Virus record (IMG/VR): IMGVR_UViG_3300021387_000125
Coordinates: 2,762-66,761 of that record
Reading direction: 5' to 3' (one strand)
Origin: a virus
Lineage: Duplodnaviria > Caudoviricetes
DNA: 64,000 nt
In this document: positions 14,265 through 42,125 of the stretch, in pieces
Numbering within the stretch: the stretch's first letter is position 1
Layout: each line of letters begins with the position of its first letter
The notes under the pieces: model-generated
Databases searched by the model: none
What the model saw: only the letters and a program-made list of their open reading frames with translations
Told to the model about the DNA's origin: nothing
Position numbers and translations under genes: made by a program

Positions 14265-16066
14265 TATTCATCATTTCCTTGTCTGAATGTATCTGGGCTT
14301 TGCTGTATTGAACTATCAAGCCCTAATTGGTTCATATCCATTTGAGTCATTATATTATCTTCTACTGCAACTCTATTCTCTTCTTGTACTTCCAACAGAG
14401 CCTCACGGGCTTGCTTCTCTGTCTCACCCATATACCACATACGAACTTCTTTCTTACTCATAATACCCTTGTCCATAAGTGTCATACGTTTACCAAGCTC
14501 TGTTTCTACATCTACAAGAATACTATCATCCCACTCAAAAGATGTTTCATATTCCCCCTCTGGTGTAATCTTATACAAATCACAAAGAGCGTTCATTACA
14601 TAGATTAAATCCTCAAGACAGATTTGAATAGCTTGCTGTATCTCTGCATTTGTCTGATAGCTCCTTTGTTTAAGTATTCTAAGCTCGTAGGCTGTTCTTG
14701 CCTCTGCGGCATCAACATCTGAAAGAGTGCCACGAGAAAGACCAGTTACATCTTCTATATGCATAAGAATGGTATTAAGACCATCTATATAACTTGCATC
14801 TCTAAGAGATGGAGCATATTGATTATATGTATCACCCTCTGCTGTTAATTCAACCGGACGATAAAGTCTCTGTTGTAAATGACCCATACCAGATTTAAGT
14901 ACTTGGTTACCTTCACTATCTGTAGTGTAGAACTCTCTAAGAGCATCTCTATCAATATCAATAGCAAGCTCACCACCCTCATATTCCCAAAGAAGTCTAC
15001 TATATTGCATATCTGCGTCTTTGATAAGGCTGATAGCTTTATCAAAACCACTAACTCCAAGCGGGCTATAAATATCAATAGTGTTAGCTTCTGGCATCTT
15101 AAAATATGCAAACATAAGTCTATCAACATCTTCTATAGTAGTAACTGAGTCTATACTTGCCCACTCCGGTACTGTTGTTAATGGTATCTCTTGTCCTAAA
15201 TCAGCACCATCTCCACGAGCTGTAGACTTAAATGCTTTGTTTGTAATAACTACTTGATGATTAGTTAATTTATGATGCTCTAATCTACTATATACTGTAT
15301 CTTTATCAACTTTACGTTGGATAAAAGCCGCCTCTGTTATATCACCACTACTACTAAATGCTAAAGGATAAAAATCACAAGCATATACAAAATCAAAATC
15401 CATATCGTACTTATCTACTTTATCATTAGATACTTCATTCTCAACTACATATGGCTTGATTACAAGACCACCTAAAGCAATTCCATACTCAATCTGTTTA
15501 CGCAATCTGCGTAATATCTTATTCTTATATGTTTTATTAAGGTATTCAGCTCTCTCAGTTGGTCCCTTTGGAATAAGCTCTTTAACAGTAGCTTGTGGGT
15601 GAAACTGTGCTGTATTATATCTACTGTCTTGATTAAAACGCTCTCTGACGTTGCTAGAAGCGTTTTCTTTGCTTTCTGTAGCATTATCTGTATTATTAGT
15701 CGTATCTGTATTAGATTGATTAAAACGCTCTACAATGTTATCGCCGGCTTGTTCTCTAGGTGTATCAACTTCTTTCATAGGTGTAGTGATTTCACTCTCA
15801 AACTCCAAAAGAGCCGTACGTGCCTTTTCACTAGCTATAAGTTGTGGTAAACCTAAAGATGCAACTCTTGATGGATTATCATATGTAGGTTCTCTCAGCC
15901 AAGGAGAATGTCCCTCATACATATCTTCCCATAACTGAATTTTGTCTTGCATTTTAGTTGACATAACTGGTGTTATATGCAACACGCTTTCGATTGATTT
16001 TGTACCTATCATCTTGGAAAAAACCTCCTTTAATTTTGCAAGTATTTGAGAAAAACTAATCATCAT
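14264..16066 (-). CDS. Portal protein (A118/SPP1-like)
   Basis: About 600 aa; FAYFKMP.AN.ID..SPLGVS and F.WDDSI motifs; start moved to MMISF by RBS. Confidence 0.9.
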   Translation of the reverse strand: MMISFSQILAKLKEVFSKMIGTKSIESVLHITPVMSTKMQDKIQLWEDMYEGHSPWLREPTYDNPSRVASLGLPQLIASEKARTALLEFESEITTPMKEVDTPREQAGDNIVERFNQSNTDTTNNTDNATESKENASSNVRERFNQDSRYNTAQFHPQATVKELIPKGPTERAEYLNKTYKNKILRRLRKQIEYGIALGGLVIKPYVVENEVSNDKVDKYDMDFDFVYACDFYPLAFSSSGDITEAAFIQRKVDKDTVYSRLEHHKLTNHQVVITNKAFKSTARGDGADLGQEIPLTTVPEWASIDSVTTIEDVDRLMFAYFKMPEANTIDIYSPLGVSGFDKAISLIKDADMQYSRLLWEYEGGELAIDIDRDALREFYTTDSEGNQVLKSGMGHLQQRLYRPVELTAEGDTYNQYAPSLRDASYIDGLNTILMHIEDVTGLSRGTLSDVDAAEARTAYELRILKQRSYQTNAEIQQAIQICLEDLIYVMNALCDLYKITPEGEYETSFEWDDSILVDVETELGKRMTLMDKGIMSKKEVRMWYMGETEKQAREALLEVQEENRVAVEDNIMTQMDMNQLGLDSSIQQSPDTFRQGNDE

Positions 16067-16703
16067 CTTCCTCCTTATCAATATCATCTATACCGTCTAT
16101 GTGCTTATCTATATCATACTTTATATATCTAACATTACCTGGAAGATAATCAAAAGTATTTGTATATACAAGTATCTCTCGTGGTTCTAATCGTTTTAGC
16201 ATCTCTTCATAACCACGCATACCTGCTTCTATGTGCTCTGCTGACTTACCGCCGCCTACTGCCGATACAGCCACTATGCTGTCTTTTGGATAACCATCAA
16301 AACACCAATCCCAATCTTCTTCTAAACCATATCGTATGAGCGGAATTACAGTAATACCCAATTCTTGCCAATATGCTGAAATCCAATGCATACGATACTT
16401 ATTAAATACTCTGAGTGCTTTTGGAAAGTCTATATAGTATGAGAAATCTGGTGTAATTACAGCATCATAATTTGACATTACATCAGCGTATCTATCCGGA
16501 AAATTCCAAACACACTCAAATTTAAAATCATACTCAAAAAAGTGTACACCAGTTTTCTTTGGTTTATTACGCATACGCTTTGCTTTTTCAAACTCTAACC
16601 ATCTATCTATGTTTGGAAGCTCTCGTACTGGCTGTATCACTGGTATATCATACTCTCCAACTCCAGCATACTCTCGTACCGATGTGTTTAATAATTGTGG
16701 CAT
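16056..16703 (-). CDS. DUF4417-domain protein
   Basis: GVHFF.YD.KFE.VW....TPDFS.Y.D.P.A...N.YR..W...YWQ..GI.VIP motifs. Confidence 0.8.
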   Translation of the reverse strand: MPQLLNTSVREYAGVGEYDIPVIQPVRELPNIDRWLEFEKAKRMRNKPKKTGVHFFEYDFKFECVWNFPDRYADVMSNYDAVITPDFSYYIDFPKALRVFNKYRMHWISAYWQELGITVIPLIRYGLEEDWDWCFDGYPKDSIVAVSAVGGGKSAEHIEAGMRGYEEMLKRLEPREILVYTNTFDYLPGNVRYIKYDIDKHIDGIDDIDKEEDDD

Positions 16704-16912: not shown

Positions 16913-17524
16913 TTAATTACCTCGTCTATTTCTTAATCTATTCGCACAACTTCTGGAACAAGTAATTGATGGTCTATACTTATTAGTCATAAACTTATTC
17001 CCACAAATTGGACACTCTTTTTCAATATCATCTAATCTATTTTTTCTACGATAGCTAGATTTACAAGCATTACTGCAAAAAGAGTTTCCACCATTCTTAT
17101 AAATTTCACCTACATACTCTTTTCCACAATTAGTACAAATTAGTTTTCGTTTAAATGCTCCGACTTCGTGCATCTGTTTAATTTGTTCGCTATGCCATCT
17201 ACTGCCGTCTTTTGATTTGTGCCACTCTACAGCTTTTGGTCTAGCTGTACGCTCTAAATTTTCTCTTCTCCACTCTCGCTGTTGTTCTGTGAGTAAATCT
17301 GCGTGTATCTTTTTATGTTCGGCTCTAGTAAGAAGCTGTAGATTAGATATATCATTATTGCCTCTATCAAAGTCAATATGATGTACTTCATATCCACTTG
17401 GTATCTTACCATTGTAGTATTCCCAAACATATCTATGCATATACTTACGCAAGCCATTGTGTCGATAATATCCTTTATCTGTGCGTATAAACTTTATTCC
17501 ATCAAACTCTTGATAATCATTCAT
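16913..17524 (-). CDS. HNH homing endonuclease with C-terminal Zn-ribbon repeats
   Basis: MHRYVWE...EVHHIDFDRGNNDISNL (HNH_3 motif); C.NCG..F.CS..C repeats. Confidence 0.85.
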   Translation of the reverse strand: MNDYQEFDGIKFIRTDKGYYRHNGLRKYMHRYVWEYYNGKIPSGYEVHHIDFDRGNNDISNLQLLTRAEHKKIHADLLTEQQREWRRENLERTARPKAVEWHKSKDGSRWHSEQIKQMHEVGAFKRKLICTNCGKEYVGEIYKNGGNSFCSNACKSSYRRKNRLDDIEKECPICGNKFMTNKYRPSITCSRSCANRLRNRRGN

Positions 17525-17584: not shown

Positions 17585-18886
17585 TTAGTTTCCTCTTCTA
17601 TTGCAGTATCGCTCTAGGGCGTACCTACAAGCATCAATCGAATGATTGTTTTCGTCTGGATAGTCACTAATAAAGTTACCCTCTCTGTCTTGTAAGTACT
17701 CATAATGAGTAAATTCTTTATAGGTCTTAGGACACATTCGTCTATCTATATAAATATGATTAAGTCCTTGTAGCCATTTGATACCATATCGTACTGAGTC
17801 TGGTCCTTTTACAGCTCCACGTATATATGCCCCATAGGCTTTAAAGTCTGCTACAGATTTCATCTCAGCCGAGTCCGCTGTAACAAGCTCATCACGACTA
17901 ATATATTTCTTCTCGTCATATAATGTCTCAAATACTACTTGGTTTCTCGTCTGCACAGTAGAATATTCCCTAAAGATATATAAATCAAGTTTCTTTGCAT
18001 CAAAATGCATACGCACAAATCTAAATGGGTCACGAGCAAATCCCCAATCTATGCCGTTATAAAGCTTATCAAAAGTCTTATACATCTCTGTATACTGTAT
18101 TATATTGCCGTCAAAGTCATATACTGGCACTTGCTGTTGCATATCCAAATCGCAAGCATTAGGAAATACTCCACCACCAGTACCCACAGCGAGTCCCATA
18201 TACTCGTGCTCATATGCTTTAATATTTATCTTCTTTAGCCACTCAGCCTCTTCAATAAATGGTTGACCTAGCCAAGTAGGTGGAACATCTAAATAGGTAT
18301 TCGACACTACAAGCGTGTCATCTCGTAGAGAAGCCTCATCCGCATATTCATTAGCCCAATTATCAATACTAATAGGTGGGTTGAAAGTACGAAAATCCCA
18401 AAAGAGTTCTCCACCTCTCATAGTAGACTGTAATACTTTACGAAGCTCAGCCTCGCCAGCAAATTGGTCAAGCTCCTCCCACCAAGTAATACCAATATAG
18501 CCTCGCTCTACCTTAATACTCTTCACTTTATTAGGGTCATCCATACCCATAAAGAAAATCTTTTGCCCAGTAGGTTTATATACTATAGGATTAGAGTAAG
18601 TCTTAGGTATATGAAATAAATCTTGTAAGCCCATCTGATAAATACCCCAAGTTACTTGCGAATAAATACTATTCTGCACAGTATTACCTACTTTTCTAAA
18701 GCACACAGCATTAACATCCGGATACTGTATAATAAGTAATGGTACATCAATGCCTCCTACAAAAGAAGATTTAGTAGAGCCACGTCCACCTTTAAGACAA
18801 TAATGGGTATGCTTATGAGACATAATATCCTTAAAAACCTCGTCATAGGCGGGTATTATCAAATCTTTAATCTTTATATCTATCAT
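17585..18886 (-). CDS. terL: Terminase large subunit (PBSX family)
   Basis: KGGRGSTKS Walker A, WWEE Walker B, GIDWG nuclease motif, NNHSIDACRY. Confidence 0.95.
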   Translation of the reverse strand: MIDIKIKDLIIPAYDEVFKDIMSHKHTHYCLKGGRGSTKSSFVGGIDVPLLIIQYPDVNAVCFRKVGNTVQNSIYSQVTWGIYQMGLQDLFHIPKTYSNPIVYKPTGQKIFFMGMDDPNKVKSIKVERGYIGITWWEELDQFAGEAELRKVLQSTMRGGELFWDFRTFNPPISIDNWANEYADEASLRDDTLVVSNTYLDVPPTWLGQPFIEEAEWLKKINIKAYEHEYMGLAVGTGGGVFPNACDLDMQQQVPVYDFDGNIIQYTEMYKTFDKLYNGIDWGFARDPFRFVRMHFDAKKLDLYIFREYSTVQTRNQVVFETLYDEKKYISRDELVTADSAEMKSVADFKAYGAYIRGAVKGPDSVRYGIKWLQGLNHIYIDRRMCPKTYKEFTHYEYLQDREGNFISDYPDENNHSIDACRYALERYCNRRGN

Positions 18887-18939
18887 CTTCTTATTCTCCC
18901 ATAAACATAGTATAACGCATTATGTAAACTAGCGCAAGA

Positions 18940-18955
18940 TGTTTCACGTTAAACA
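18940..18955. promoter_or_regulatory. parS: Degenerate parS-like site
   Basis: TGTTTCACGTTAAACA, one mismatch to TGTTNCACGTGAAACA. Confidence 0.5.
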
Positions 18956-19084
18956 TTCCGACAATACAAGAAATCAAGACTCATAGAAATTTTGACAATA
19001 CAAGAATATAAAATACTTAGAAAAATTGGGGCAATACATTCTTAGAGGGGCTCAGTATTTTTTGAGAGTAAGGGACGGACAGAG

Positions 19085-19123
19085 CAAAAAAATCCCCCCA
19101 CTCATTTTTCCCGAGTGGGGGAT
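19085..19123 (-). terminator. Rho-independent terminator
   Basis: ATCCCCCACTC/GAGTGGGGGAT-type stem followed by a 7-T run on the minus strand. Confidence 0.7.
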
Positions 19124-19134
19124 ATTATGTCAAC

Positions 19135-19545
19135 TTACTGTGCTAGTACTTCAAGCTCGTTGAAAATATATTCGATTATAGTGTCAAGCTCTGCGCTTGT
19201 GTTTGTGTAAATATCCCAGAACATATCCCACTTTTCGTGATATTGCGCACGCTCTTTGTTGTACTTGCTGAGATTTACTCTTGTACAGATATGAAACTTA
19301 TCTTTTGTAGTATAGAATATCTCAAGCAAGTTATTGTTTGTGTTTTCAATCTGTACTGTAAACTTATGTTTTTTGTCGTAGTTCTTATAAGTGATACTGT
19401 CATAGTTTGCGAGTGTCTCAAGAATTCTATTATAGTTCATCTCAAGCTTTTGTTCTTTTGTTAATGTTACAAGATTTGTTGTGTTGTGCTCGATTGCTTT
19501 CTTTCCTACAAGTGTAGCTGTCTCTTTAAAATTTTTCTTTGTCAT
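19135..19545 (-). CDS. Hypothetical protein
   Basis: 136 aa ORF with RBS; no recognisable motif. Confidence 0.65.
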   Translation of the reverse strand: MTKKNFKETATLVGKKAIEHNTTNLVTLTKEQKLEMNYNRILETLANYDSITYKNYDKKHKFTVQIENTNNNLLEIFYTTKDKFHICTRVNLSKYNKERAQYHEKWDMFWDIYTNTSAELDTIIEYIFNELEVLAQ

Positions 19546-19715
19546 AGTCTTTTCTCACTTTCTCTTGTTATAGTCTGTAGTGACTTTATAAAATTTGTTG
19601 TTGTAAAGCTTTGAGTGATTGTTAAAACACTTGCAAGCTCTTCATTTATTTTCTTTGTTGTTGTTAGCTGTGCTATAGCTAATCTATTCAACTGTATATA
19701 TGCTTGTGTGTTCAT
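19542..19715 (-). CDS. Hypothetical 57-aa protein
   Basis: Manual translation MNTQAYIQLNRL...; ATGA overlap with the next gene; directly after a promoter. Confidence 0.55.
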   Translation of the reverse strand: MNTQAYIQLNRLAIAQLTTTKKINEELASVLTITQSFTTTNFIKSLQTITRESEKRL

Positions 19716-19750
19716 ATAATCACCCGCTTTCTTTTGTTTTCTATGTATAC

Positions 19751-19850
19751 ATTATACATCTGGAAATAGTATAAGTATATAATAATGCTGTCATTTATAT
19801 TAAAAATCTGCTATAAAATTCTGTCATTTATATCAATTTTCTGCACTCAT
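19751..19850 (-). promoter_or_regulatory. Promoter with upstream GACAGAA-type repeats
   Basis: TATACT-N17-TATAAT preceded by about four (G/T)GACAG/GCAGAA half-sites. Confidence 0.65.
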
Positions 19851-19854
19851 TTTC

Positions 19855-19919
19855 CCACAGATAATTGATATAAAAGACAGATAATTGATATTGATATTAT
19901 GTAAACTCCCAGCTATAAT
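19855..19919 (+). promoter_or_regulatory. Divergent plus-strand promoter with two 21-bp repeats
   Basis: ACAGATAATTGATA x2 at 21 bp spacing, then TTGATA(19891)-N17-TATAAT(19914). Confidence 0.6.
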
Positions 19920-19973
19920 TATATAATAAAAACTATGTGCAACGTGTTCACGAACACGGGAGAGGAGTATGTT

Positions 19974-20105
19974 ATGAACATATTATGTGAACTATTTTTC
20001 CAGAATTATGTAAACTTGAGATTTTCACATTATGTCAACCAGTCTGGGAGCGGGGTAGAAGGTCCGCTCCCTTATTATATTACACGCACGTGCAACGAAC
20101 TTTAA
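19974..20105 (+). CDS. Putative 43-aa mini-protein (only plausible plus-strand gene)
   Basis: AGAGGAG RBS, ATG at 19974, downstream of the plus-strand promoter; but the ORF is built from repeated DNA motifs. Confidence 0.3.
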   Translation: MNILCELFFQNYVNLRFSHYVNQSGSGVEGPLPYYITRTCNEL

Positions 20106-20112
20106 TGACTTC
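20088..20112 (+). repeat. 25-bp dispersed direct repeat, copy 1
   Basis: ACGTGCAACGAACTTTAATGACTTC; near-identical copies at 25522 and 27571. Confidence 0.8.
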
Positions 20113-20145
20113 GACCAATAGCCAAATTATTTTTGCTTTCTAAAA

Positions 20146-20161
20146 TGTTTCACGTGGAACA
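20146..20161. promoter_or_regulatory. parS: parS site (perfect)
   Basis: TGTTTCACGTGGAACA; reverse complement TGTTCCACGTGAAACA matches the chromosomal parS consensus. Confidence 0.85.
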
Positions 20162-20212
20162 TCTCTATCTTGCACCCCGCTCCAAAATCCAATTCCCTAA
20201 ATACACACATAG

Positions 20213-20228
20213 CGTTTCACGTGGAACA
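20213..20228. promoter_or_regulatory. parS: parS site (15/16)
   Basis: CGTTTCACGTGGAACA. Confidence 0.75.
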
Positions 20229-20316
20229 TTGTCTTGTAATCTTACTATAAATCCCGCTCCCAAATTGCGCTATATATAATAGTAGAAACTCATATGTGTG
20301 GAGCGGTATGCTTGAA

Positions 20317-20332
20317 TGTTTCACGTGGAACA
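20317..20332. promoter_or_regulatory. parS: parS site (perfect)
   Basis: TGTTTCACGTGGAACA. Confidence 0.85.
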
Positions 20333-20542
20333 TTAACTCGCTTGCTGTCTGTTTCTAAGGTTTCCTGTGTCCTTGTGTTTAATCTCTCAATGAGGATATT
20401 TATCTATTATTATATACTTATTTATTATATCTTGTATATTGTAATATAATAGGATAGATTATATTAGTTTTTTATATATACTAACTATCTATCCTACTAT
20501 CTTTATTATCCCGCCGAAGTTGTTCAGGATTATATATTGTTA

Positions 20543-21088
20543 TTATTCACCTCTTTTCTTTAGTATTGTTTCTTTATCTTCTTTATGTGCTATAGGTAAA
20601 AACATAGCTATTGCTTCATCATTCTCCCACATTATTACCGCCGACTTGTTTTGCTTATTTACTGTGGCTGTGAATGTTATATTATCTGGTACTTTCTTTG
20701 TTACAGGTTTATTATAGAATTGCTCAAAGAACCGAGCATTAATCCATATATCTGCTTTTTTACCATCTGTAAATCGTACTACTCGCTTTTTATCTAACTC
20801 AAATATTTCCTCTATGAACACTTCTTTATGCCCACGCTCTTCGGCTGTATGCGCAATAAGTCTTTCTAATGGAGCTTCTTTATTTATCATAGGGAGCAAA
20901 TCTGTTCCTAATACCTTCGGCAATAATTCTTTCTCCACTCTGAAAACATAATGAGCTTCATAACAAACATACCCATATTTCTCATCTGAGTTATAATCAA
21001 ACATAAACTTTGTAGGATAATATTGATAATTCCCACCATCTATAAAATAATCCAACGCGTTCTGCAATCTTTTTACTGATAATTCCAT
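20543..21088 (-). CDS. Hypothetical protein
   Basis: 181 aa, GGAGG RBS. Confidence 0.7.
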   Translation of the reverse strand: MELSVKRLQNALDYFIDGGNYQYYPTKFMFDYNSDEKYGYVCYEAHYVFRVEKELLPKVLGTDLLPMINKEAPLERLIAHTAEERGHKEVFIEEIFELDKKRVVRFTDGKKADIWINARFFEQFYNKPVTKKVPDNITFTATVNKQNKSAVIMWENDEAIAMFLPIAHKEDKETILKKRGE

Positions 21089-21110
21089 ATGCTTACCTCC
21101 TAATTAATCT

Positions 21111-21377
21111 TTATACATCCTGCTCTTTTACCAATTGTAATTCAAGTACCGGTATTCCATTTTCATATATTCGTACTAAACCAAAATCTCCGTCTACCAA
21201 ATATCTATGCTTTGCTGATAGATACTTTTTATCCACTAAAAAGCTTATTAGGTATGGGTCATTGTTTATTACATAATCATGAATTTCTTCCTTACCAACT
21301 ATTCGTCTATCAACACATTCCTCATACTCATCTATCATATGCCAATTACTCAACCAATATATTTTCCACTCTGTCAT
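21111..21377 (-). CDS. Hypothetical protein
   Basis: 88 aa, RBS, coupled to neighbours. Confidence 0.6.
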   Translation of the reverse strand: MTEWKIYWLSNWHMIDEYEECVDRRIVGKEEIHDYVINNDPYLISFLVDKKYLSAKHRYLVDGDFGLVRIYENGIPVLELQLVKEQDV

Positions 21378-21580
21378 TACATATTCTCCTTTCTAACTCT
21401 TCTGGTTCTTATCGTACAAGATATAAGCTGTGGTAAATATCCTGCTTTCTTCTCATTCATATATGTTTTCCAATCTTCATAAGCTTCTTTTCTAGTATTA
21501 TAGGTACACTCTGCTTCTGGACCATATCCATAATCTGTAACTAAATCATATACATCATATGTTTTCCTTATATAACTCAT
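21377..21580 (-). CDS. Hypothetical protein
   Basis: 67 aa, GGAGG RBS. Confidence 0.6.
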   Translation of the reverse strand: MSYIRKTYDVYDLVTDYGYGPEAECTYNTRKEAYEDWKTYMNEKKAGYLPQLISCTIRTRRVRKENM

Positions 21581-21581
21581 A

Positions 21582-21794
21582 TTATACCTCCTCCATATAT
21601 CTAACTATTCCGCACACTACGTCCCACGCACTCTCTATCTTTAAGCAACGAAGGAAAGGTTCGTTGTGCTTGCATACATCACATTTATTTCCATTATCAA
21701 CATAATAGTTTACTGATAATCCTAATTCAGGATTATTCTTTATTGTTACCTCTATCCATCTCATTCTCATTTCCTCATCACTTGTAAAATACAT
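21582..21794 (-). CDS. Hypothetical protein
   Basis: 70 aa, AAGGAG RBS, first gene after a promoter. Confidence 0.6.
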   Translation of the reverse strand: MYFTSDEEMRMRWIEVTIKNNPELGLSVNYYVDNGNKCDVCKHNEPFLRCLKIESAWDVVCGIVRYMEEV

Positions 21795-21851
21795 ATTATT
21801 TCTCCTTTCTTTGATAGATTATATCGTTATCTATTCTTTATTTCTAATTAT

Positions 21852-21918
21852 ATTATAGCCTGGTAATATATGCTTGTATATAGCAAATTTCTGCGAATTA
21901 TATCAAAATTCTGTCATA
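21852..21918 (-). promoter_or_regulatory. Promoter with two 21-bp upstream repeats
   Basis: TGACAGAATTTTGATATAATT-CGCAGAAATTTG then TATACA-N17-TATAAT. Confidence 0.7.
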
Positions 21919-21982
21919 TAGTAAAAATGCACAAAAAGCCCGGTTTTTAATTTTTCCGACTTTTTGTGCAAATTATACAATA

Positions 21983-22150
21983 CTACCATCCTCTAAATTC
22001 CAATCTTAGAGCTGTCTGTTGATACTCATTTAATTCCAAATAATCTTTATATGTTAGATTATGAATTTTCTTTAACCATTCCTCAAATGTTATAGAGCGT
22101 TTTACTGTTTTATTTCTTTTTCCAGAATAATGTCTTTTATAATATCCCAT
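21983..22150 (-). CDS. Hypothetical 55-aa basic protein
   Basis: Manual translation MGYYKRHYSGK...; followed by hairpin TGCACAAAAAG/CTTTTTGTGCA. Confidence 0.5.
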   Translation of the reverse strand: MGYYKRHYSGKRNKTVKRSITFEEWLKKIHNLTYKDYLELNEYQQTALRLEFRGW

Positions 22151-22153
22151 ATC

Positions 22154-22375
22154 TTAATACCTCCCATAACTATAATCTTTATATACTTCCATATAATTTA
22201 CAACCATTTCCTCATCTAATATGTTTCTAACTATTTTCACTTGTTCGTCCAAAACATTTTTCATAGTGAACATAAACGCTCCTACAAAAATTCCTTCAAA
22301 TAAGCAATAACCTTTAACTTTTTTGTATAGCTCCAGCTTTTCTGCTGGAGCTAAGTCTCTTACAAATCTTGCCAT
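22154..22375 (-). CDS. Hypothetical protein
   Basis: 73 aa, GGAGG RBS. Confidence 0.6.
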   Translation of the reverse strand: MARFVRDLAPAEKLELYKKVKGYCLFEGIFVGAFMFTMKNVLDEQVKIVRNILDEEMVVNYMEVYKDYSYGRY

Positions 22376-22378
22376 ATA

Positions 22379-22681
22379 TTAATCCCTCCCAACTACTTCT
22401 TCCACCTGAGCTAACATATCCATTCTGTCCCAATATATACAGAACGCTTCTGCTCTGGAATGTCCTTGACTTACTAGATATTCAACTTCCACATAATCCT
22501 TAACATAATTGAGACAATCTTCCAACTTATCTGCTGGATGTAATTCTACTCCTCTTAACGCTTTGTTAAGTTTTCCATTTTCATCAATGTACTTATCCTC
22601 AACTGCACAGAATAAATCCTGATGCTTTACTATTACAAAGTGTCTTCCTCTTACTGAATAATCCTTAACTACTACTTTCAT
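22379..22681 (-). CDS. Hypothetical protein
   Basis: 100 aa, AAGGAG RBS after a promoter. Confidence 0.65.
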   Translation of the reverse strand: MKVVVKDYSVRGRHFVIVKHQDLFCAVEDKYIDENGKLNKALRGVELHPADKLEDCLNYVKDYVEVEYLVSQGHSRAEAFCIYWDRMDMLAQVEEVVGRD

Positions 22682-22739
22682 ATTTTAGCTCCTTTCTTTG
22701 ATAACATAATATCGTTATCTATTGTTTATTTCTAATTGT

Positions 22740-22803
22740 ATTATAAGCTGGAAAAGACAGAATGTAAATCTCAACATTCTGTCTTTTATATCAAATTTCT
22801 GCT
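22740..22803 (-). promoter_or_regulatory. Promoter with GACAGAA repeats and a palindrome over the -35
   Basis: TTTACA-N17-TATAAT; AAGACAGAATGT/ACATTCTGTCTT inverted repeat straddles the -35. Confidence 0.7.
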
Positions 22804-23125
22804 ATGCTTCCATTTTGTACTGTTTATAATAGGATGCATAATATTTTCCATTTTTCATATAGTCTTTTAACATAATATATCCAGTTGCTGTATCTTCCAT
22901 ATCTTCTTCCGTTTCCCAAAATTCTCCAACTATTACATAATCATCTACTACTTTCGGAATATCGTACATATTCACAAAATATGGATGTTGTGTGCTTTTA
23001 AAGAAATGGTAAGCATAAATTTCCGCATTTATAATTTCAGCCATTTGCTCTACATTCTCTGCTTCATTTTTTACCCTACGTACAATTTGGCAAATATCAT
23101 ACCCATCATCAATAAATCCTGACAT
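22802..23125 (-). CDS. Hypothetical protein
   Basis: 107 aa, AAGGAGG RBS. Confidence 0.65.
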   Translation of the reverse strand: MSGFIDDGYDICQIVRRVKNEAENVEQMAEIINAEIYAYHFFKSTQHPYFVNMYDIPKVVDDYVIVGEFWETEEDMEDTATGYIMLKDYMKNGKYYASYYKQYKMEA

Positions 23126-23244
23126 ATCTTAATCCTCCTTCAATCTATACTTATTCCTATGAGTCTCTTCTAGCTCGCAAAGAGCTAGAAGATTTCCTAT
23201 TATATTTTCCTTATATACTATATAACTTATTATGATTGTAAGTA

Positions 23245-23733
23245 TTAATCCTGGCATTTTTTAGCCTCCTTTTTCACATTTCCATATCTATCAAAAGTTA
23301 CTCTATTATATTCCAAATTATCATCTAATAAGTCACACACTAAACGTGAACCTTTTGCCATATAACTTGCCTGTAAATCCAATAATTCAAAACGCTTCTT
23401 ATACTCGTTATCTTTTGGCACTTTTTTAATCATCAGCACTTTACACAATCCAGAGTTTGTAAACTCTGCCTTATTATCATAACTGGCTGTTATCCAATTA
23501 GTACGCTGTAAAGAGTCTATAAGAACCTCTGGAGTTATTTGTGCTCCATTTTTTAGCATCTTCAATATACGCCTACATAACCATTTTGCATAATGTAAGG
23601 TGATATAATATTCCCTATTCTCTTCAGGAATATGCTGTTCTTTACTTCTGGACGATTTGTATTCATACAAGTTTCCTTGCTCTGCATCAAATCCCATATA
23701 CATATTATCAATAACTTCCTTAGTTATGTACAC
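23245..23733 (-). CDS. Hypothetical protein
   Basis: 162 aa, GTG start, GGAGGTG RBS. Confidence 0.65.
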   Translation of the reverse strand: MYITKEVIDNMYMGFDAEQGNLYEYKSSRSKEQHIPEENREYYITLHYAKWLCRRILKMLKNGAQITPEVLIDSLQRTNWITASYDNKAEFTNSGLCKVLMIKKVPKDNEYKKRFELLDLQASYMAKGSRLVCDLLDDNLEYNRVTFDRYGNVKKEAKKCQD

Positions 23734-23745
23734 TACATCACCTCC

Positions 23746-24015
23746 TTACATTCCTGCTCTGATACACTCATCCAGATATATACGATTTCCGTTATATCTG
23801 AAATACGCTCTGGCATCCCCGTAAGGAGACTTTAATCCAACTGTATAATGAACTTTGCTCCTATGTACAGACTTATTACTGCACCAAGCTCCAGCTACGA
23901 ATACGATATAATCATCTATACCATACTGAATTTCCTTAATTTCAATTCCCGAATATCCTGAATAATACCCAACATATTCCTTCTCCAGATAATATTGCTT
24001 CTCCTGTTTAGTCAT
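23746..24015 (-). CDS. Hypothetical protein
   Basis: 89 aa, AAGGAG RBS. Confidence 0.65.
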   Translation of the reverse strand: MTKQEKQYYLEKEYVGYYSGYSGIEIKEIQYGIDDYIVFVAGAWCSNKSVHRSKVHYTVGLKSPYGDARAYFRYNGNRIYLDECIRAGM

Positions 24016-24033
24016 AGCTAATCTCCTTTCTTA

Positions 24034-24327
24034 CTACTCATCAAGTAGTACCACATATGTATTATCCGCTGTCCTAATCTTTGTAGCTTCGTGTCCTTCA
24101 AATGAGAATTCCCAAGCTACAGAAAACTTATATCCACTTGCTGAGATAATTCTAAAATTATCTCCTTTGTCCTCAACTTTTTCTCTGAGACAATCCTCAT
24201 ATGCTTCTGCCTTCTTCTGGGAGAATGTTGTATAAACATTATACAGACTTCTTCCTAAATCTGTCTCAGCTCTTTTAATAAGCTCCTGTCCTCTTCTTGT
24301 ACTTCCTTTAATTATTGTTGTTTTCAT
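24034..24327 (-). CDS. Hypothetical protein
   Basis: Start moved to MKTT by AAGGAG RBS. Confidence 0.65.
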   Translation of the reverse strand: MKTTIIKGSTRRGQELIKRAETDLGRSLYNVYTTFSQKKAEAYEDCLREKVEDKGDNFRIISASGYKFSVAWEFSFEGHEATKIRTADNTYVVLLDE

Positions 24328-24383
24328 ATTTTCTCCTTTCTGTTGTGCTCTGCACAACTTAAAACGATTTATTTTATGATTTA

Positions 24384-24448
24384 ATTGTATCTAGGTAAGA
24401 ATATCTTGTATATAAGAAATTTCTGTCAATTATATCAATTTTCTGTCA
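24384..24448 (-). promoter_or_regulatory. Promoter with two 21-bp upstream repeats
   Basis: TGACAGAAAATTGATATAAT-TGACAGAAATTT then TATACA-N17-TACAAT. Confidence 0.7.
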
Positions 24449-24736
24449 TCACATATTATGTGATTCCATATAAGCTAAAGCTTCCTCTTTAGTATTAAAT
24501 TTTACATCAACTAACCGTTTACCAAAGCTTCCAGGTCTTCCCGTATCGTGTATAGTGTAGTAGGTATCTCTCCAATATCCTTCACGCACTAAACTATATG
24601 TTCTATGCGGAGTATACACAAACAATCCAACCCAACCTATATTAGTATGTGATACTCTACAATATTCTGTGCTGGCATTTTTATCTGCCTCATCCAAAGC
24701 TTTTGCATATTCATATACATTAGGTTCTCCATACAT
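24449..24736 (-). CDS. Hypothetical protein
   Basis: Start probably MYGEP (GAAAGGTG RBS). Confidence 0.55.
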   Translation of the reverse strand: MYGEPNVYEYAKALDEADKNASTEYCRVSHTNIGWVGLFVYTPHRTYSLVREGYWRDTYYTIHDTGRPGSFGKRLVDVKFNTKEEALAYMESHNM

Positions 24737-24785
24737 AATAATCACCTTTCTCCCCGGTAAGTCTGATAGGACAACTTTTAAAGAT

Positions 24786-25115
24786 TTATATTTCCTCAAA
24801 CCAACTAACTACACAATCAGCATCCAGCTCAAACATTATATTTAAGATAGGATTGTCATCATATCCTTCCCATCTATCTGGGTTAGAATGTTCGTATATA
24901 TCATTGGCAACAATCTCTAACTGGTCAACAAGCTCTGCTGGATTAAATGCATATGACTCTACCAATACTCCTAACTTATCGTCAAAGTGCTCTGCACAGC
25001 ATAGACAATTTAACATATTGGTATACTCTTCACAGGTTCCTCTGGTGTACCAGTCTTGCTGTATACATTTATTTCTTACCTTATAACTATCAATCCTTGA
25101 ATACTTAATTATCAT
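24786..25115 (-). CDS. Hypothetical protein
   Basis: 109 aa, AAGGAG RBS. Confidence 0.65.
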   Translation of the reverse strand: MIIKYSRIDSYKVRNKCIQQDWYTRGTCEEYTNMLNCLCCAEHFDDKLGVLVESYAFNPAELVDQLEIVANDIYEHSNPDRWEGYDDNPILNIMFELDADCVVSWFEEI

Positions 25116-25231
25116 TTTATTTATCTCCTTTCCTTTATCACTTTAGATTTTAATAATCAGTAGTAGTACCTCTCCTCTTTTGAAATTTATAACCTACCAA
25201 CTACTAATGTCGTGATATATTCTTTAAGTAT

Positions 25232-25298
25232 AGTATAGTTTGGACAATAAAACTTGTAAATATCAAAATTCTGTCATTTTATATCAAAATTCTGTCAT
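25232..25298 (-). promoter_or_regulatory. Promoter with two 21-bp upstream repeats
   Basis: TGACAGAATTTTGATATAAAA-TGACAGAATTTTGATA then TTTACA-N17-TATACT. Confidence 0.75.
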
Positions 25299-25448
25299 AG
25301 CTATTTTCCAAGCTCGTATAAGCGTTTTTTAGCGTGTTTTTGTGTGCGTGTATATAATAGTAGAAAAAATGCAAAAAATCGCTTTAAAAAGCTTGTAAAC
25401 GCGCTAAAATACTAGCTTTTTGCACGTTTTCAAAATTGTTTCCAAAGT

Positions 25449-25484
25449 AAAAAAAACATATGAGCACCGGTTCATATGTTTTTT
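25449..25484. terminator. Bidirectional terminator-like hairpin
   Basis: AAAAAAACATATGA GCACCGGT TCATATGTTTTTT. Confidence 0.6.
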
Positions 25485-25521
25485 GAGTCGACCACTTTTT
25501 TATATATACGTGCGAGCGTAA

Positions 25522-25546
25522 ACGTGCAACGAACTATAATGACTCC
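25522..25546 (+). repeat. 25-bp dispersed direct repeat, copy 2
   Basis: ACGTGCAACGAACTATAATGACTCC, 2 mismatches to copy 1. Confidence 0.8.
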
Positions 25547-25575
25547 GACTCTTAGTGAAAATTTTTTACATAGTA

Positions 25576-25607
25576 AAAGACACACTAGGTGGGGCTAGTG
25601 TGTCTTT
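25576..25607. terminator. Terminator downstream of terS
   Basis: AAAGACACACTAG GTGGGG CTAGTGTGTCTTT hairpin. Confidence 0.65.
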
Positions 25608-25641
25608 CTTAGAAGGAAAAAGCAATATGGATAAAAGTGCT

Positions 25642-26223
25642 TTAATCTGATAATTGTTGTATATCTACTACTGTATCTGGTTCTTCATTCCTGCTCATAT
25701 CTATATTTACTACTACTTGTTGAGCTTGTGTTTGTTTTCCACGCTCAACATCATCTATAAGTACTTTCTTTAATTCTCTTGCGGCGGCTGTACGCTCTGA
25801 TAGTGGCGCATCTAAATCAAATTGGTCTTTAACTTCTCCACGCATTACCGCTGTAAAGTATTCTAATACTTCTTGTCTATCTGCTATACATTCACTCGCA
25901 TATATCTCTGTTCTATATGCTATCTCATCCAATATATAATCTGTCTTTAATAGTTTACGAGCCTTACCAGCTATATCTTTTACTTTAAATCCGGCTTTTT
26001 GTACAGCTTCTTTACCATCATAATTTACCATATATGCATCTATGAAACGTGCTTCCCTAAATGTTAAAGGATGCATATTATGTGTTACATATCCAGTTCT
26101 ATAAGTTTCTGTCTGAGTTATTGGTTTTGCATCTGTATTATAGCTATTAATTCTAGGCTTTTTTCCAAGCTCATACTTAGACACTATATCTTTGGAAAGT
26201 CTAGCAATCTTATCTTCTTTCAC
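25642..26223 (-). CDS. terS: Terminase small subunit
   Basis: LT.RE.RF.DAY...AVQKAGF...A..LL...IADRQEVLEYFTAVMRGE...L.ER.AAA.EL pattern. Confidence 0.85.
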   Translation of the reverse strand: MKEDKIARLSKDIVSKYELGKKPRINSYNTDAKPITQTETYRTGYVTHNMHPLTFREARFIDAYMVNYDGKEAVQKAGFKVKDIAGKARKLLKTDYILDEIAYRTEIYASECIADRQEVLEYFTAVMRGEVKDQFDLDAPLSERTAAARELKKVLIDDVERGKQTQAQQVVVNIDMSRNEEPDTVVDIQQLSD

Positions 26224-27205: not shown

Positions 27206-27219
27206 TTTATTCTCCTTAT

Positions 27220-27291
27220 CGGGGGTAGTAGGACTCGAACCTACGAATATATGAGCCAAAATCATATGCCTTACCACTTGGCGATACCCCT
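27220..27291 (-). tRNA. trnQ: tRNA-Gln(UUG)
   Basis: AGGGGTA-TC-GCCAAGTGGTAAGGC-A-TATGA-TTTTGGC-TCATA...GTAGG-TTCGAGT-CCTAC-TACCCCC-G; anticodon TTG; CCA not encoded. Confidence 0.9.
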
Positions 27292-27460
27292 ATGTGTGAG
27301 TTTTCCACCGCAGTGACGCAACTCACAGACGCTCTGTACAGATTGGAGGTTATCCCAAGTCCTGTCTGCTAACCTACCTTAAACGTAACGCCTCGTTGCA
27401 TTATTTTGCTAAATGTAGATTGTACACTCTACATTAAGTGGTGAACGGATAGCCACTCCA

Positions 27461-40867: not shown

Positions 40868-41740
40868 TTATTCTCCTTTTTTAAAATCACTACTTATGAT
40901 TTTAGGTACTGCATTTTCCCAATTTATTATATGGTGTATTCGTTTGTGTTTATCGCCCATTGTATATATTTTAGTACAAGATGGATTTGTAATTATAGTA
41001 AAAAATGACTTTACATATGTACCTGAGTTTAAATATAACTCTGTCATACCTCCTGAATTAGCCTGTGTTTGCAATTGGTCTAATGATGCATTAGCTATTG
41101 TAAAAAACAGCTTACCTTTGCCTCCTAAATTTACATAAGTATTTACATCTTCATTAACTCTGCCAATAAAACTAAATGGTCGTCTTGTGTCACAGAAAAA
41201 GGAATTCATAGCTTTTCTTGCTAATTGTTGTTTCCATACATTTGAACCCATACCACCTATAAAATCTCCAGTTTGAGATAACGCAACTGTATCTGCTTTA
41301 GATGTATCTAAAAACTGTAATACATATTCAAACAAGCTGTCTAAATCTCTATGGTACTTTGTAGCAAATTTACCATCAACATCTAAACGACTTCTAAAGC
41401 ACGTATAATCATCATCTAATTCCAAAAAGTAATCATATTGTAAGTCTTTAGCAATCTCAAAACAAGCGTTTCTGGCATAAAAAATAGAACGTCTTTCATC
41501 ACTATTATCCACGGTATCATATCTATTAGCTATATCTAATTTATCAAACACATAAATAGCTGTATTCTGTTTATTTTCATAAATACGTTTATATTCATCA
41601 ATAGTATTATCCTCATTATCTAACACTAACACAATTGGTCCTGTATAACCATTATTTCGTAAAGTTTCGTATGTATATACTTTATCAGGCCTACCGTGGG
41701 TTAAAATAAATGCTACAAAATTATTTCTTATTTGTATCAT
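40868..41740 (-). CDS. TAGT/GREB1-like GT-A glycosyltransferase
   Basis: FILTHGRP, YARN..F..A, ELDDDY, GR.NED, Q...GGMTE.Y...GTY.KSF; start moved to MIQIR. Confidence 0.75.
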   Translation of the reverse strand: MIQIRNNFVAFILTHGRPDKVYTYETLRNNGYTGPIVLVLDNEDNTIDEYKRIYENKQNTAIYVFDKLDIANRYDTVDNSDERRSIFYARNACFEIAKDLQYDYFLELDDDYTCFRSRLDVDGKFATKYHRDLDSLFEYVLQFLDTSKADTVALSQTGDFIGGMGSNVWKQQLARKAMNSFFCDTRRPFSFIGRVNEDVNTYVNLGGKGKLFFTIANASLDQLQTQANSGGMTELYLNSGTYVKSFFTIITNPSCTKIYTMGDKHKRIHHIINWENAVPKIISSDFKKGE

Positions 41741-42125
41741 CACCACTCTCCTCAAGTATCTGTTTAATATCTTTTGAAAGTTTAACATATCCATTTGCTA
41801 TTGCATCATCAATGTCTATAATAACTAATGCTGACTTTTCCATAAGCTCTTGCATCTCTCTATCTGCGTGAGCATAGTAATCGGCAATTTTTGAATAATT
41901 AAATATTATATGCCTAGTAGCCGCAAATCGTAAAAACTTTTTCTCATCATCCGAGATATTAGACTTATTAATATCAGCTATAAGTTGATTATGCTTTCGC
42001 ATATCATACAACTCGGTTAAATTTGGATTTACTTCACTTGGTAAATATTGAGGTTTTTCTACTTTCTTTGTATATTTTTTATCCACTTCTTTAACAGTAT
42101 TAAACAAATTAAACTGTTTACTCAT
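41721..42125 (-). CDS. Glycosyltransferase partner protein with an N-terminal QxxLF motif
   Basis: KYT.K...P.Y.P, F.AA.RH..FN..KIADYYAH..EMQEL.E.SALVIID; begins MSKQFNLF. Confidence 0.6.
   Translation of the reverse strand: MSKQFNLFNTVKEVDKKYTKKVEKPQYLPSEVNPNLTELYDMRKHNQLIADINKSNISDDEKKFLRFAATRHIIFNYSKIADYYAHADREMQELMEKSALVIIDIDDAIANGYVKLSKDIKQILEESGDDTNKK

Follow-up and report, generated by a model that had tools for sequence, protein, structure and literature searches.

Host-type parS sites without partition genes upstream of terL in a large lytic-type rumen phage: a candidate orphan centromere

The parS zone and the phage genome around it

The stretch of DNA analysed here (the window, 64,000 nucleotides) comprises bases 2762-66761 of a 66,761-bp virus record of IMG/VR (IMGVR_UViG_3300021387_000125). 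The genome is complete, having a 107-bp direct terminal repeat and a CheckV completeness of 100%, and all credible genes in the whole window lie on the minus strand. Between terS and terL there is a cluster of three sites that follow the chromosomal parS type. The sites parS-1 (20146-20161) and parS-3 (20317-20332) are exact copies of TGTTTCACGTGGAACA, whereas parS-2 (20213-20228), CGTTTCACGTGGAACA, agrees with it at 15 of 16 positions, the outermost base alone being different (C for T). The comparison was made against the generic pattern TGTTNCACGTGNAACA, which parS-1 matches exactly. Read on the minus strand, the exact sites give TGTTCCACGTGAAACA, which we take to be the classic Spo0J site of Bacillus subtilis. 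A fourth copy, TGTTTCACGTTAAACA, is located at 18940-18955, 54-69 bp upstream of the terL ATG (18886). The first-pass annotation had described it as a one-mismatch copy upstream of terL; the position is correct, but the site differs from the 16-mer TGTTTCACGTGGAACA given there at two bases, and only against the degenerate consensus TGTTNCACGTGNAACA does a single mismatch remain. Since this mismatch turns a core G into T, at a base nearly invariant across the sites of the clade, the promoter-proximal site is regarded as a degenerate copy. Relative to TGTTNCACGTGNAACA, the phage thus has two exact sites, one with an outermost-base mismatch and one with a core mismatch, as compared to a chance expectation of 0.00-0.01 matches in dinucleotide-preserving shuffles. 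No further parS-like site with up to two mismatches was found in the whole 66,761-bp genome. The three clustered sites fall within 187 bp, in a non-coding stretch of 830 bp. All four sites are non-coding, the clustered ones being overlapped only by plus-strand ORFs of 48-56 aa that are probably spurious. The exact copies, the 15/16 copy and the intergenic placement reported by the first-pass annotation were therefore reproduced.

Next downstream of the parS zone comes terL (17585-18886, minus strand; Terminase_3 and Terminase_3C). It is followed by an HNH endonuclease gene (16913-17524) and by the gene of a stand-alone DUF4417 protein (16056-16703, minus strand), which lies in the packaging module between terL and the portal gene. 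The packaging and head genes thus include the Terminase_3-family TerL, the HNH endonuclease, the stand-alone DUF4417 protein, the portal and a minor capsid protein. The HNH gene is kept in some relatives only (L002, L009, L012, L025, L026, L030), as expected of a mobile homing gene. ORF57 and ORF136 (19135-19715, minus strand), which belong to no recognisable family, separate the distal from the proximal parS sites, and their homologues were found only in some of the parS-bearing relatives. The last gene upstream of the cluster, ORF181 (20543-21088, minus strand), is likewise of no recognisable family. The terS gene (25642-26223, minus strand; Terminase_2) is located 5.3 kb from the cluster and 6.7 kb from terL. 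The gap between the two terminase genes (18887-25641) contains small genes of no assigned function and the parS region, an arrangement that is unusual for pac-type phages.

The replication genes encode a family A polymerase, a primase, two helicases, a DnaC-like loader, a DnaD/O-like initiator, and clamp and clamp-loader subunits. The genome further contains a UvsX-like recombinase, an SSB and several GIY-YIG homing endonucleases, as well as a single tRNA-Gln (anticodon TTG) at 27219-27292 on the minus strand. By its gene content, this is a lytic-type tailed phage. It has no DNA match in the collection of cultured phages, and the closest TerL in that collection is that of Blautia phage Montmirail, with 47% identity. 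A TAGT (TET-associated) glycosyltransferase is encoded at 40868-41794, within the replication module, which raises the possibility of a base modification of the phage DNA that could alter ParB recognition. Neither a Tet/JBP dioxygenase nor a C5 DNA methylase was found in the phage genome, and cytosine hypermodification that would block ParB was rejected only provisionally, as the glycosyltransferase is present.

Domain searches of the complete genome revealed no ParB_N, HTH_ParB or ParA-type AAA_31, no tyrosine integrase and no serine recombinase or resolvase. They also revealed no XRE-type HTH repressor and no sigma-70 region 2, so that temperate or plasmid lifestyle genes were rejected as well. 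The first-pass annotation had recognised no parA, parB or integrase in the window, and its statement can now be extended to the entire genome. It had also named a cognate ParB or an integrase beyond the window as a finding that would speak against its reading. Whole-genome searches found neither, and the 2.76 kb outside the window (2.8 kb when rounded) encode nothing but a tail fibre and an endolysin that carries choline- or cell-wall-binding repeats. Similarly, ParB_N is absent from the records of five relatives, L002, L024, L029, L030 and L007, four of which are near-complete and one 48%-complete.

The parS zone contains several other elements. GGAGCGG/CCGCTCC is found five times at 20046-20307, interspersed with the parS sites, and nowhere else in the genome; the copies include the stems of a GC-rich hairpin at 20046-20071. 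Clusters of this motif occur alongside homologues of ORF181 and ORF136 in L002 (seven copies) and L003 (three copies), and L024 keeps two copies. The motif clusters are absent from the other parS-bearing relatives, for which reason GGAGCGG has the appearance of a separate module. It is probably a second, phage-specific protein-binding motif that a phage protein recognises. In the window, L003, L024 and L002, two non-coding blocks are invariant, while the neighbouring ORF181 is just 41-62% identical. One is a 22-bp block at 20095-20116, CGAAGTCATTAAAGTTCGTTGC on the minus strand. The other is an AT-rich block at 20440-20515, immediately downstream of ORF181, with a 17-bp inverted repeat at 20443-20503. 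They may function as an origin, as a packaging signal or as an RNA element. The best sigma-70-like promoter of the region, TTGATA-17-TATAAT (11/12), is on the plus strand within 19891-20080, and a terminator-like plus-strand hairpin with a T-run lies about 130 nt downstream of it. This segment may give rise to the only plus-strand transcript of the genome, antisense to minus-strand promoter-like motifs. Repeats of CTTGTATTGTC (GACAATACAAG on the plus strand) are present in two copies at 18960-19004 and in up to four copies in L008; they are found upstream of the terL promoter throughout the clade, with or without parS. The AGTTTACATAAT motif points the other way in L004-L007 and L030, and this speaks against its being a simple -10 element.

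Conservation of the sites in relatives and in the candidate host

A TerL search of IMG/VR yielded 66 loci. Conservation of parS in related phages, which the first-pass annotation had put forward as a check, was indeed observed: all eight relatives with TerL identity of at least 82% and an upstream sequence of 2.2 kb or more (L001, L002, L003, L004, L007, L024, L029 and L030) carry two to four sites, confined to the 2.2 kb upstream of terL. None was detected in nine relatives with TerL identity of 79% or less. These distant relatives have no replacement repeated palindrome upstream of terL either, and an evolving phage-specific palindrome was rejected on this basis. The 14-bp core is restricted to the parS zone in five genomes of the clade, all of them complete or near-complete. 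A frequency matrix of 28 clade sites shows that positions 2-4, 7, 10 and 13-15 never vary, that the variation is mainly at positions 5 and 12, which natural parS leaves free, and that beyond the 16-mer only one or two A/T bases are preferred on each side. Judged by this pattern of an invariant core and variation at the free positions, the sites are conserved like protein-binding sites.

Some members of the clade deviate from the common type. The C8T variant is seen in all three sites of L007, one site of L030 and two of the three sites of L001; a literature search with the sequence of this variant gave no match. The three sites of L001 (9830-9907) share a symmetric change of the outermost bases, GG..CC (GGTT...AACC). 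Among the chromosomal parS sites of 301 Lachnospirales genomes this type was not seen, and a host having such parS was rejected as an explanation of L001.

Alignment reveals that parS-3 is the orthologue of the first distal site in L003, L024 and L002, being identical except for the free position 5, while the flanks have diverged. Intact sites at -69 to -75 in L002, L003, L029 and L007 are the positional orthologues of the site at 18940. Even close relatives differ in the site layout, having a distal cluster only, terL-proximal sites only, or both. Because the sites shift in number and placement and one orthologous site is unchanged between flanks that have diverged, a centromere tolerant of position is a better fit than a fixed operator.

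Operators of the late operon nevertheless have to be considered. According to this explanation, a protein bound to the sites controls the terL promoter and ties late expression to the state of the host; it could be host ParB acting by spreading or silencing, in the way of KorB or P1 ParB, or an unrecognised phage regulator. Upstream of the conserved terL promoter block there is a site, its end 9-15 bp from the block, in the window and in L002, L003, L029 and L007. Most of these genomes have another site about 33 bp farther upstream, and three sites occupy this terL-proximal zone in L001. In addition, two sites contain -35-like GTGAAA hexamers according to a promoter scan, and the distal cluster is immediately upstream of a group of promoter-like motifs. 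The nearly fixed spacing of the proximal sites to the terL promoter hints at a regulatory role. However, L024, which has the distal cluster only, and L008 possess the same terL promoter with no parS there, L004 and L030 have distal sites only, at very different distances, and the proximal site of the window itself is degenerate. Furthermore, no candidate phage regulator is common to all parS-bearing relatives, ORF136 and ORF181 being found in two or three of them only, and there would be no reason for a phage regulator to copy the host parS base for base. Altogether, an operator function appears to be a distinctly unlikely account of the sites.

The candidate host was approached through metagenome-assembled genomes (MAGs). 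A 66,480-bp relative, L024, is scaffold_856 of the rumen MAG 'uncultured Lachnospiraceae RUG145' (G006), and other relatives were found in MAGs of Clostridia and Candidatus Fimenecus. The MAGs holding relatives encode ParB beside the same parS variants, the host link being one of binning only. Since binning is weak evidence, the placement of the phage in rumen Clostridia, which comes from MAG binning alone, and hence the host assignment, are provisional. In RUG145, the variants found on its phage scaffold, TGTTTCACGTGAAACA and TGTTCCACGTGAAACA, recur about 1 kb upstream of parB, which for this host, assigned by binning only, bears out the earlier description of the sites as host-type parS. The phage and MAG sites share A/T flanks, and parS-3 has a 21-nt exact match to a chromosomal parS of G006. 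The DNA homology between phage and host ends at the site itself, at 17-24 bp. The phage sites are therefore not a captured host stretch, and a captured piece of the host origin region was rejected as a candidate. Exact sites are present in 24 of the 26 Lachnospiraceae genomes sampled, mostly two or three per genome (range 1-5) and mostly in one tight cluster. With three sites in 187 bp vs. two or three in most of these genomes, the phage therefore carries the equivalent of a whole host centromere in number and layout.

This resemblance also bears on the view that the sites act independently of ParB, as pac signals, sites for a phage protein, hairpins in RNA or DNA, or captured host DNA that is inert. 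Several features are in line with it: the position of the sites between terS and terL, in a repeat-rich non-coding region that holds other conserved blocks and the private GGAGCGG motif, the good folding of the minus-strand RNA (z = -4.1), and the symmetric GG..CC variant in L001. But the sites match the host parS base for base, the natural degeneracy included. The asymmetric variants at positions 5 and 12 disrupt hairpin pairing, and the long-range pairing partners are not retained in L003. A pac function sits poorly with a terS located 5.3 kb away and with distant relatives that have no replacement palindrome at this position. Inert capture is opposed by the end of host homology at the 17-24 bp site and by the maintenance of multiple copies across diverged relatives. 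Hence ParB-independent functions seem very unlikely. Two specific candidates related to them were rejected: ORF136 as TerS with the sites as pac, given that TerS (Terminase_2) is encoded at 25642-26223, and a known RNA family, as 18700-20700 has no match in Rfam and the long-range pairs of the strong fold are not conserved.

Probable recruitment of host ParB and its possible consequences

Loading of ParB-CTP at parS and its subsequent spreading are established biochemistry (PMC8494293, PMC9449133). Because the phage has host-type parS and encodes no ParB, ParA or integrase, it very probably borrows the ParB of its host, and recruitment of host ParB is well supported by the sequence data. The first-pass annotation had proposed that host ParB and SMC are recruited by the phage. 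The core of this proposal is supported by host-type parS in a genome free of partition and integration genes, by the conservation of the sites, and by their match to the sites of the candidate-host ParB; the part that lacks support is a spore route like that of phi29. As for function, there is about an even chance that the four sites represent an orphan centromere, i.e., a copy of the host ParB-binding sequence on a phage without partition genes.

The mechanism that we propose for such a centromere has two steps. In the first, which is likely given the sequence identity and conservation on which it is based, the phage DNA would enter the cell and circularise or replicate, and CTP-bound host ParB (Spo0J) would load at 20146-20332. 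Loading at the degenerate site at 18940 would be weak, if it occurs. ParB would then spread as sliding clamps over the flanks, including the late promoter of terL. In the second step, the phage genome would act like the origin region of the host, being positioned and partitioned by ParA/Soj and SMC. As a result, the unintegrated genome could be passed on to daughter cells during a delayed or suspended infection, and possibly to forespores if the host forms spores. This step is drawn by analogy with phi29 and SGI1, and its chances seem slightly short of even. Since no sign of a non-lytic state, including a repressor, was found in the genome, the persistence phase is an assumption. Partition or positioning of unintegrated genomes in a delayed infection is the reading favoured here, with ParB titration as an unavoidable side effect that would arise upon replication.

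Titration could also be the main purpose. In such a case the sites serve host takeover as a ParB sink, or by centromere incompatibility: the phage copies titrate ParB off the few chromosomal parS, so that SMC loading, Soj/DnaA control and chromosome segregation are disturbed, or SMC is drawn to the phage DNA, inheritance not being the purpose. With 1-5 exact sites on sampled Lachnospiraceae chromosomes vs. three good sites on each phage genome, a replicating phage would outnumber the chromosomal sites and draw ParB away. A high copy number is expected because the genome encodes a full replisome. No genes for lysogeny or persistence were found, and the amplified parS mimics of SGI1 are known to destabilise the replicon that lends its ParB (PMC10954446). 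On the other hand, a short lytic cycle would gain little that is evident from disturbed segregation, and in phi29 parS serves the segregation of the phage genome (PMC2731898). Titration as the main role is thus considered unlikely, and it is compatible with an orphan centromere, the two not being exclusive. Upkeep as an episome and titration of ParB, which the first-pass annotation had also suggested, both agree with the sequence data.

Delivery of the phage into spores, which the first-pass annotation had suggested, received no support. Spo0A boxes (TGTCGAA) show no enrichment in the phage, with 3 observed vs. 3.4 expected, and none of them is at a promoter. Spo0A_C and SpoIVA were not found in RUG145, the sole MAG with a full-length parS-bearing relative, though this MAG may be incomplete; both are present in G007 and G008, MAGs that hold other relatives. 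With the boxes at chance level and Spo0A and SpoIVA not found in RUG145, a phi29-style spore route is not supported for this phage.

Spread of orphan parS and comparison with known systems

Orphan parS sites are not confined to this clade, and pairs of them recur in over 100 unrelated viral contigs, most of which lack ParB. A scan of IMG/VR with the exact pattern returned at least 119 stretches, at least 19 of them with two or more sites, and a scan for two sites 10-40 bp apart returned at least 109 stretches. ParB_N is absent from 25 of the 27 two-site records tested, and a phi29-type polymerase is present in 4 of the 11 tested, which served as a positive control for known biology. Among the 19 multi-site loci listed, none has TerL, portal, TerS, DUF4417, PolA or putative capsid-protein similarity to the phage. 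Many two-site records are complete human-gut genomes of 11-12.7 kb with inverted terminal repeats (L230, L233, L241, L289 and others). These small gut phages have an exact parS pair about 10-250 bp from each end, and ParB_N was not detected in the three records tested. The word parS does not appear in a 2024 review of phi29-like phages, and no paper describing such a breadth of orphan parS in phages was found in the literature searched. This looks like a widespread, under-described phage trait, of which the present phage is one instance.

A link between parS and packaging was also considered in this context. In the TerL-related loci L045-L051, DUF4417 is fused to ParB_N in a 341-aa protein encoded upstream of terL (7461-8486 in L045), and phage ParB_N-DUF4417 fusion proteins are known from the literature (PMC12704722). 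It could be imagined that orphan host-type parS is a general convergent device of phages and that host ParB at terL is an in-trans ParB-CTPase partner of the stand-alone DUF4417 protein that aids the processing or packaging of phage DNA besides its segregation. Relatives lacking parS also have a stand-alone DUF4417, which makes the link to parS weak, and a tie between parS and the stand-alone protein was rejected. The combined proposal is highly improbable.

To our knowledge, only in the small Bacillus phage phi29 have experiments shown how host ParB is taken over by way of parS. The sites described here suggest the same device in an unrelated, large lytic-type phage of the rumen, conserved across its clade and equal in size to the host's own centromere. 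If host ParB does bind them, this would provide a sequence-predictable account of how integrase-less phages persist in dividing or sporulating gut bacteria, as in pseudolysogeny or the carrier state. Such phages could likewise be recognised in metagenomes by this marker, and the competition of viral with chromosomal centromeres could be studied in a natural system.

The closest parallel is phi29. Phages of the phi29 family reportedly use their parS sites together with host Spo0J (Meijer et al. 2005, summarised in PMC2731898). Like phi29, the present phage is a lytic-type phage of Firmicutes that has several host-type parS sites and encodes no ParB, and on its genome the host partition protein is presumed to act. 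However, phi29 is a 19-kb protein-primed Bacillus podovirus, whereas the phage studied here is 67 kb long, has a PolA/clamp replisome and a pac-type terminase, and is provisionally placed in rumen Clostridia. The parS sites of phi29 are scattered, in contrast to the tight, centromere-like cluster upstream of terL. In addition, phi29 has Spo0A boxes at its early and late promoters, and these boxes shut down its lytic cycle; they are not enriched in the present phage. For phi29, five parS sites and a Spo0J-dependent segregation into the prespore are described (PMC2731898).

SGI1 offers a second parallel. Its parS mimics borrow the ParABS system of the IncC plasmid, whereby SGI1 is stabilised and the plasmid displaced (PMC10954446). 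Both SGI1 and the phage are mobile elements that lack ParAB and have copies of the parS of another, resident replicon. SGI1, however, is an integrative mobilisable element of Gammaproteobacteria that has copied a plasmid parS, whereas the phage has chromosomal parS. The chromosomal parS/ParB(Spo0J)/SMC system of Firmicutes shares with the phage the identical 16 bp, the A/T flanks and an arrangement of two or three sites tens to hundreds of bp apart. The phage sites differ from it in being on a virus, in not adjoining parAB or oriC, and in having no host homology beyond the site. The plasmid-prophages P1 and N15 are also phage genomes with a centromere for extrachromosomal inheritance, but they encode their own ParA and ParB and have a private parS, and the present phage has neither protein. 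In general, by the evidence of its genome, this phage is probably a further case of host parS being used in the manner of phi29, in a phage and a host of a very different kind.
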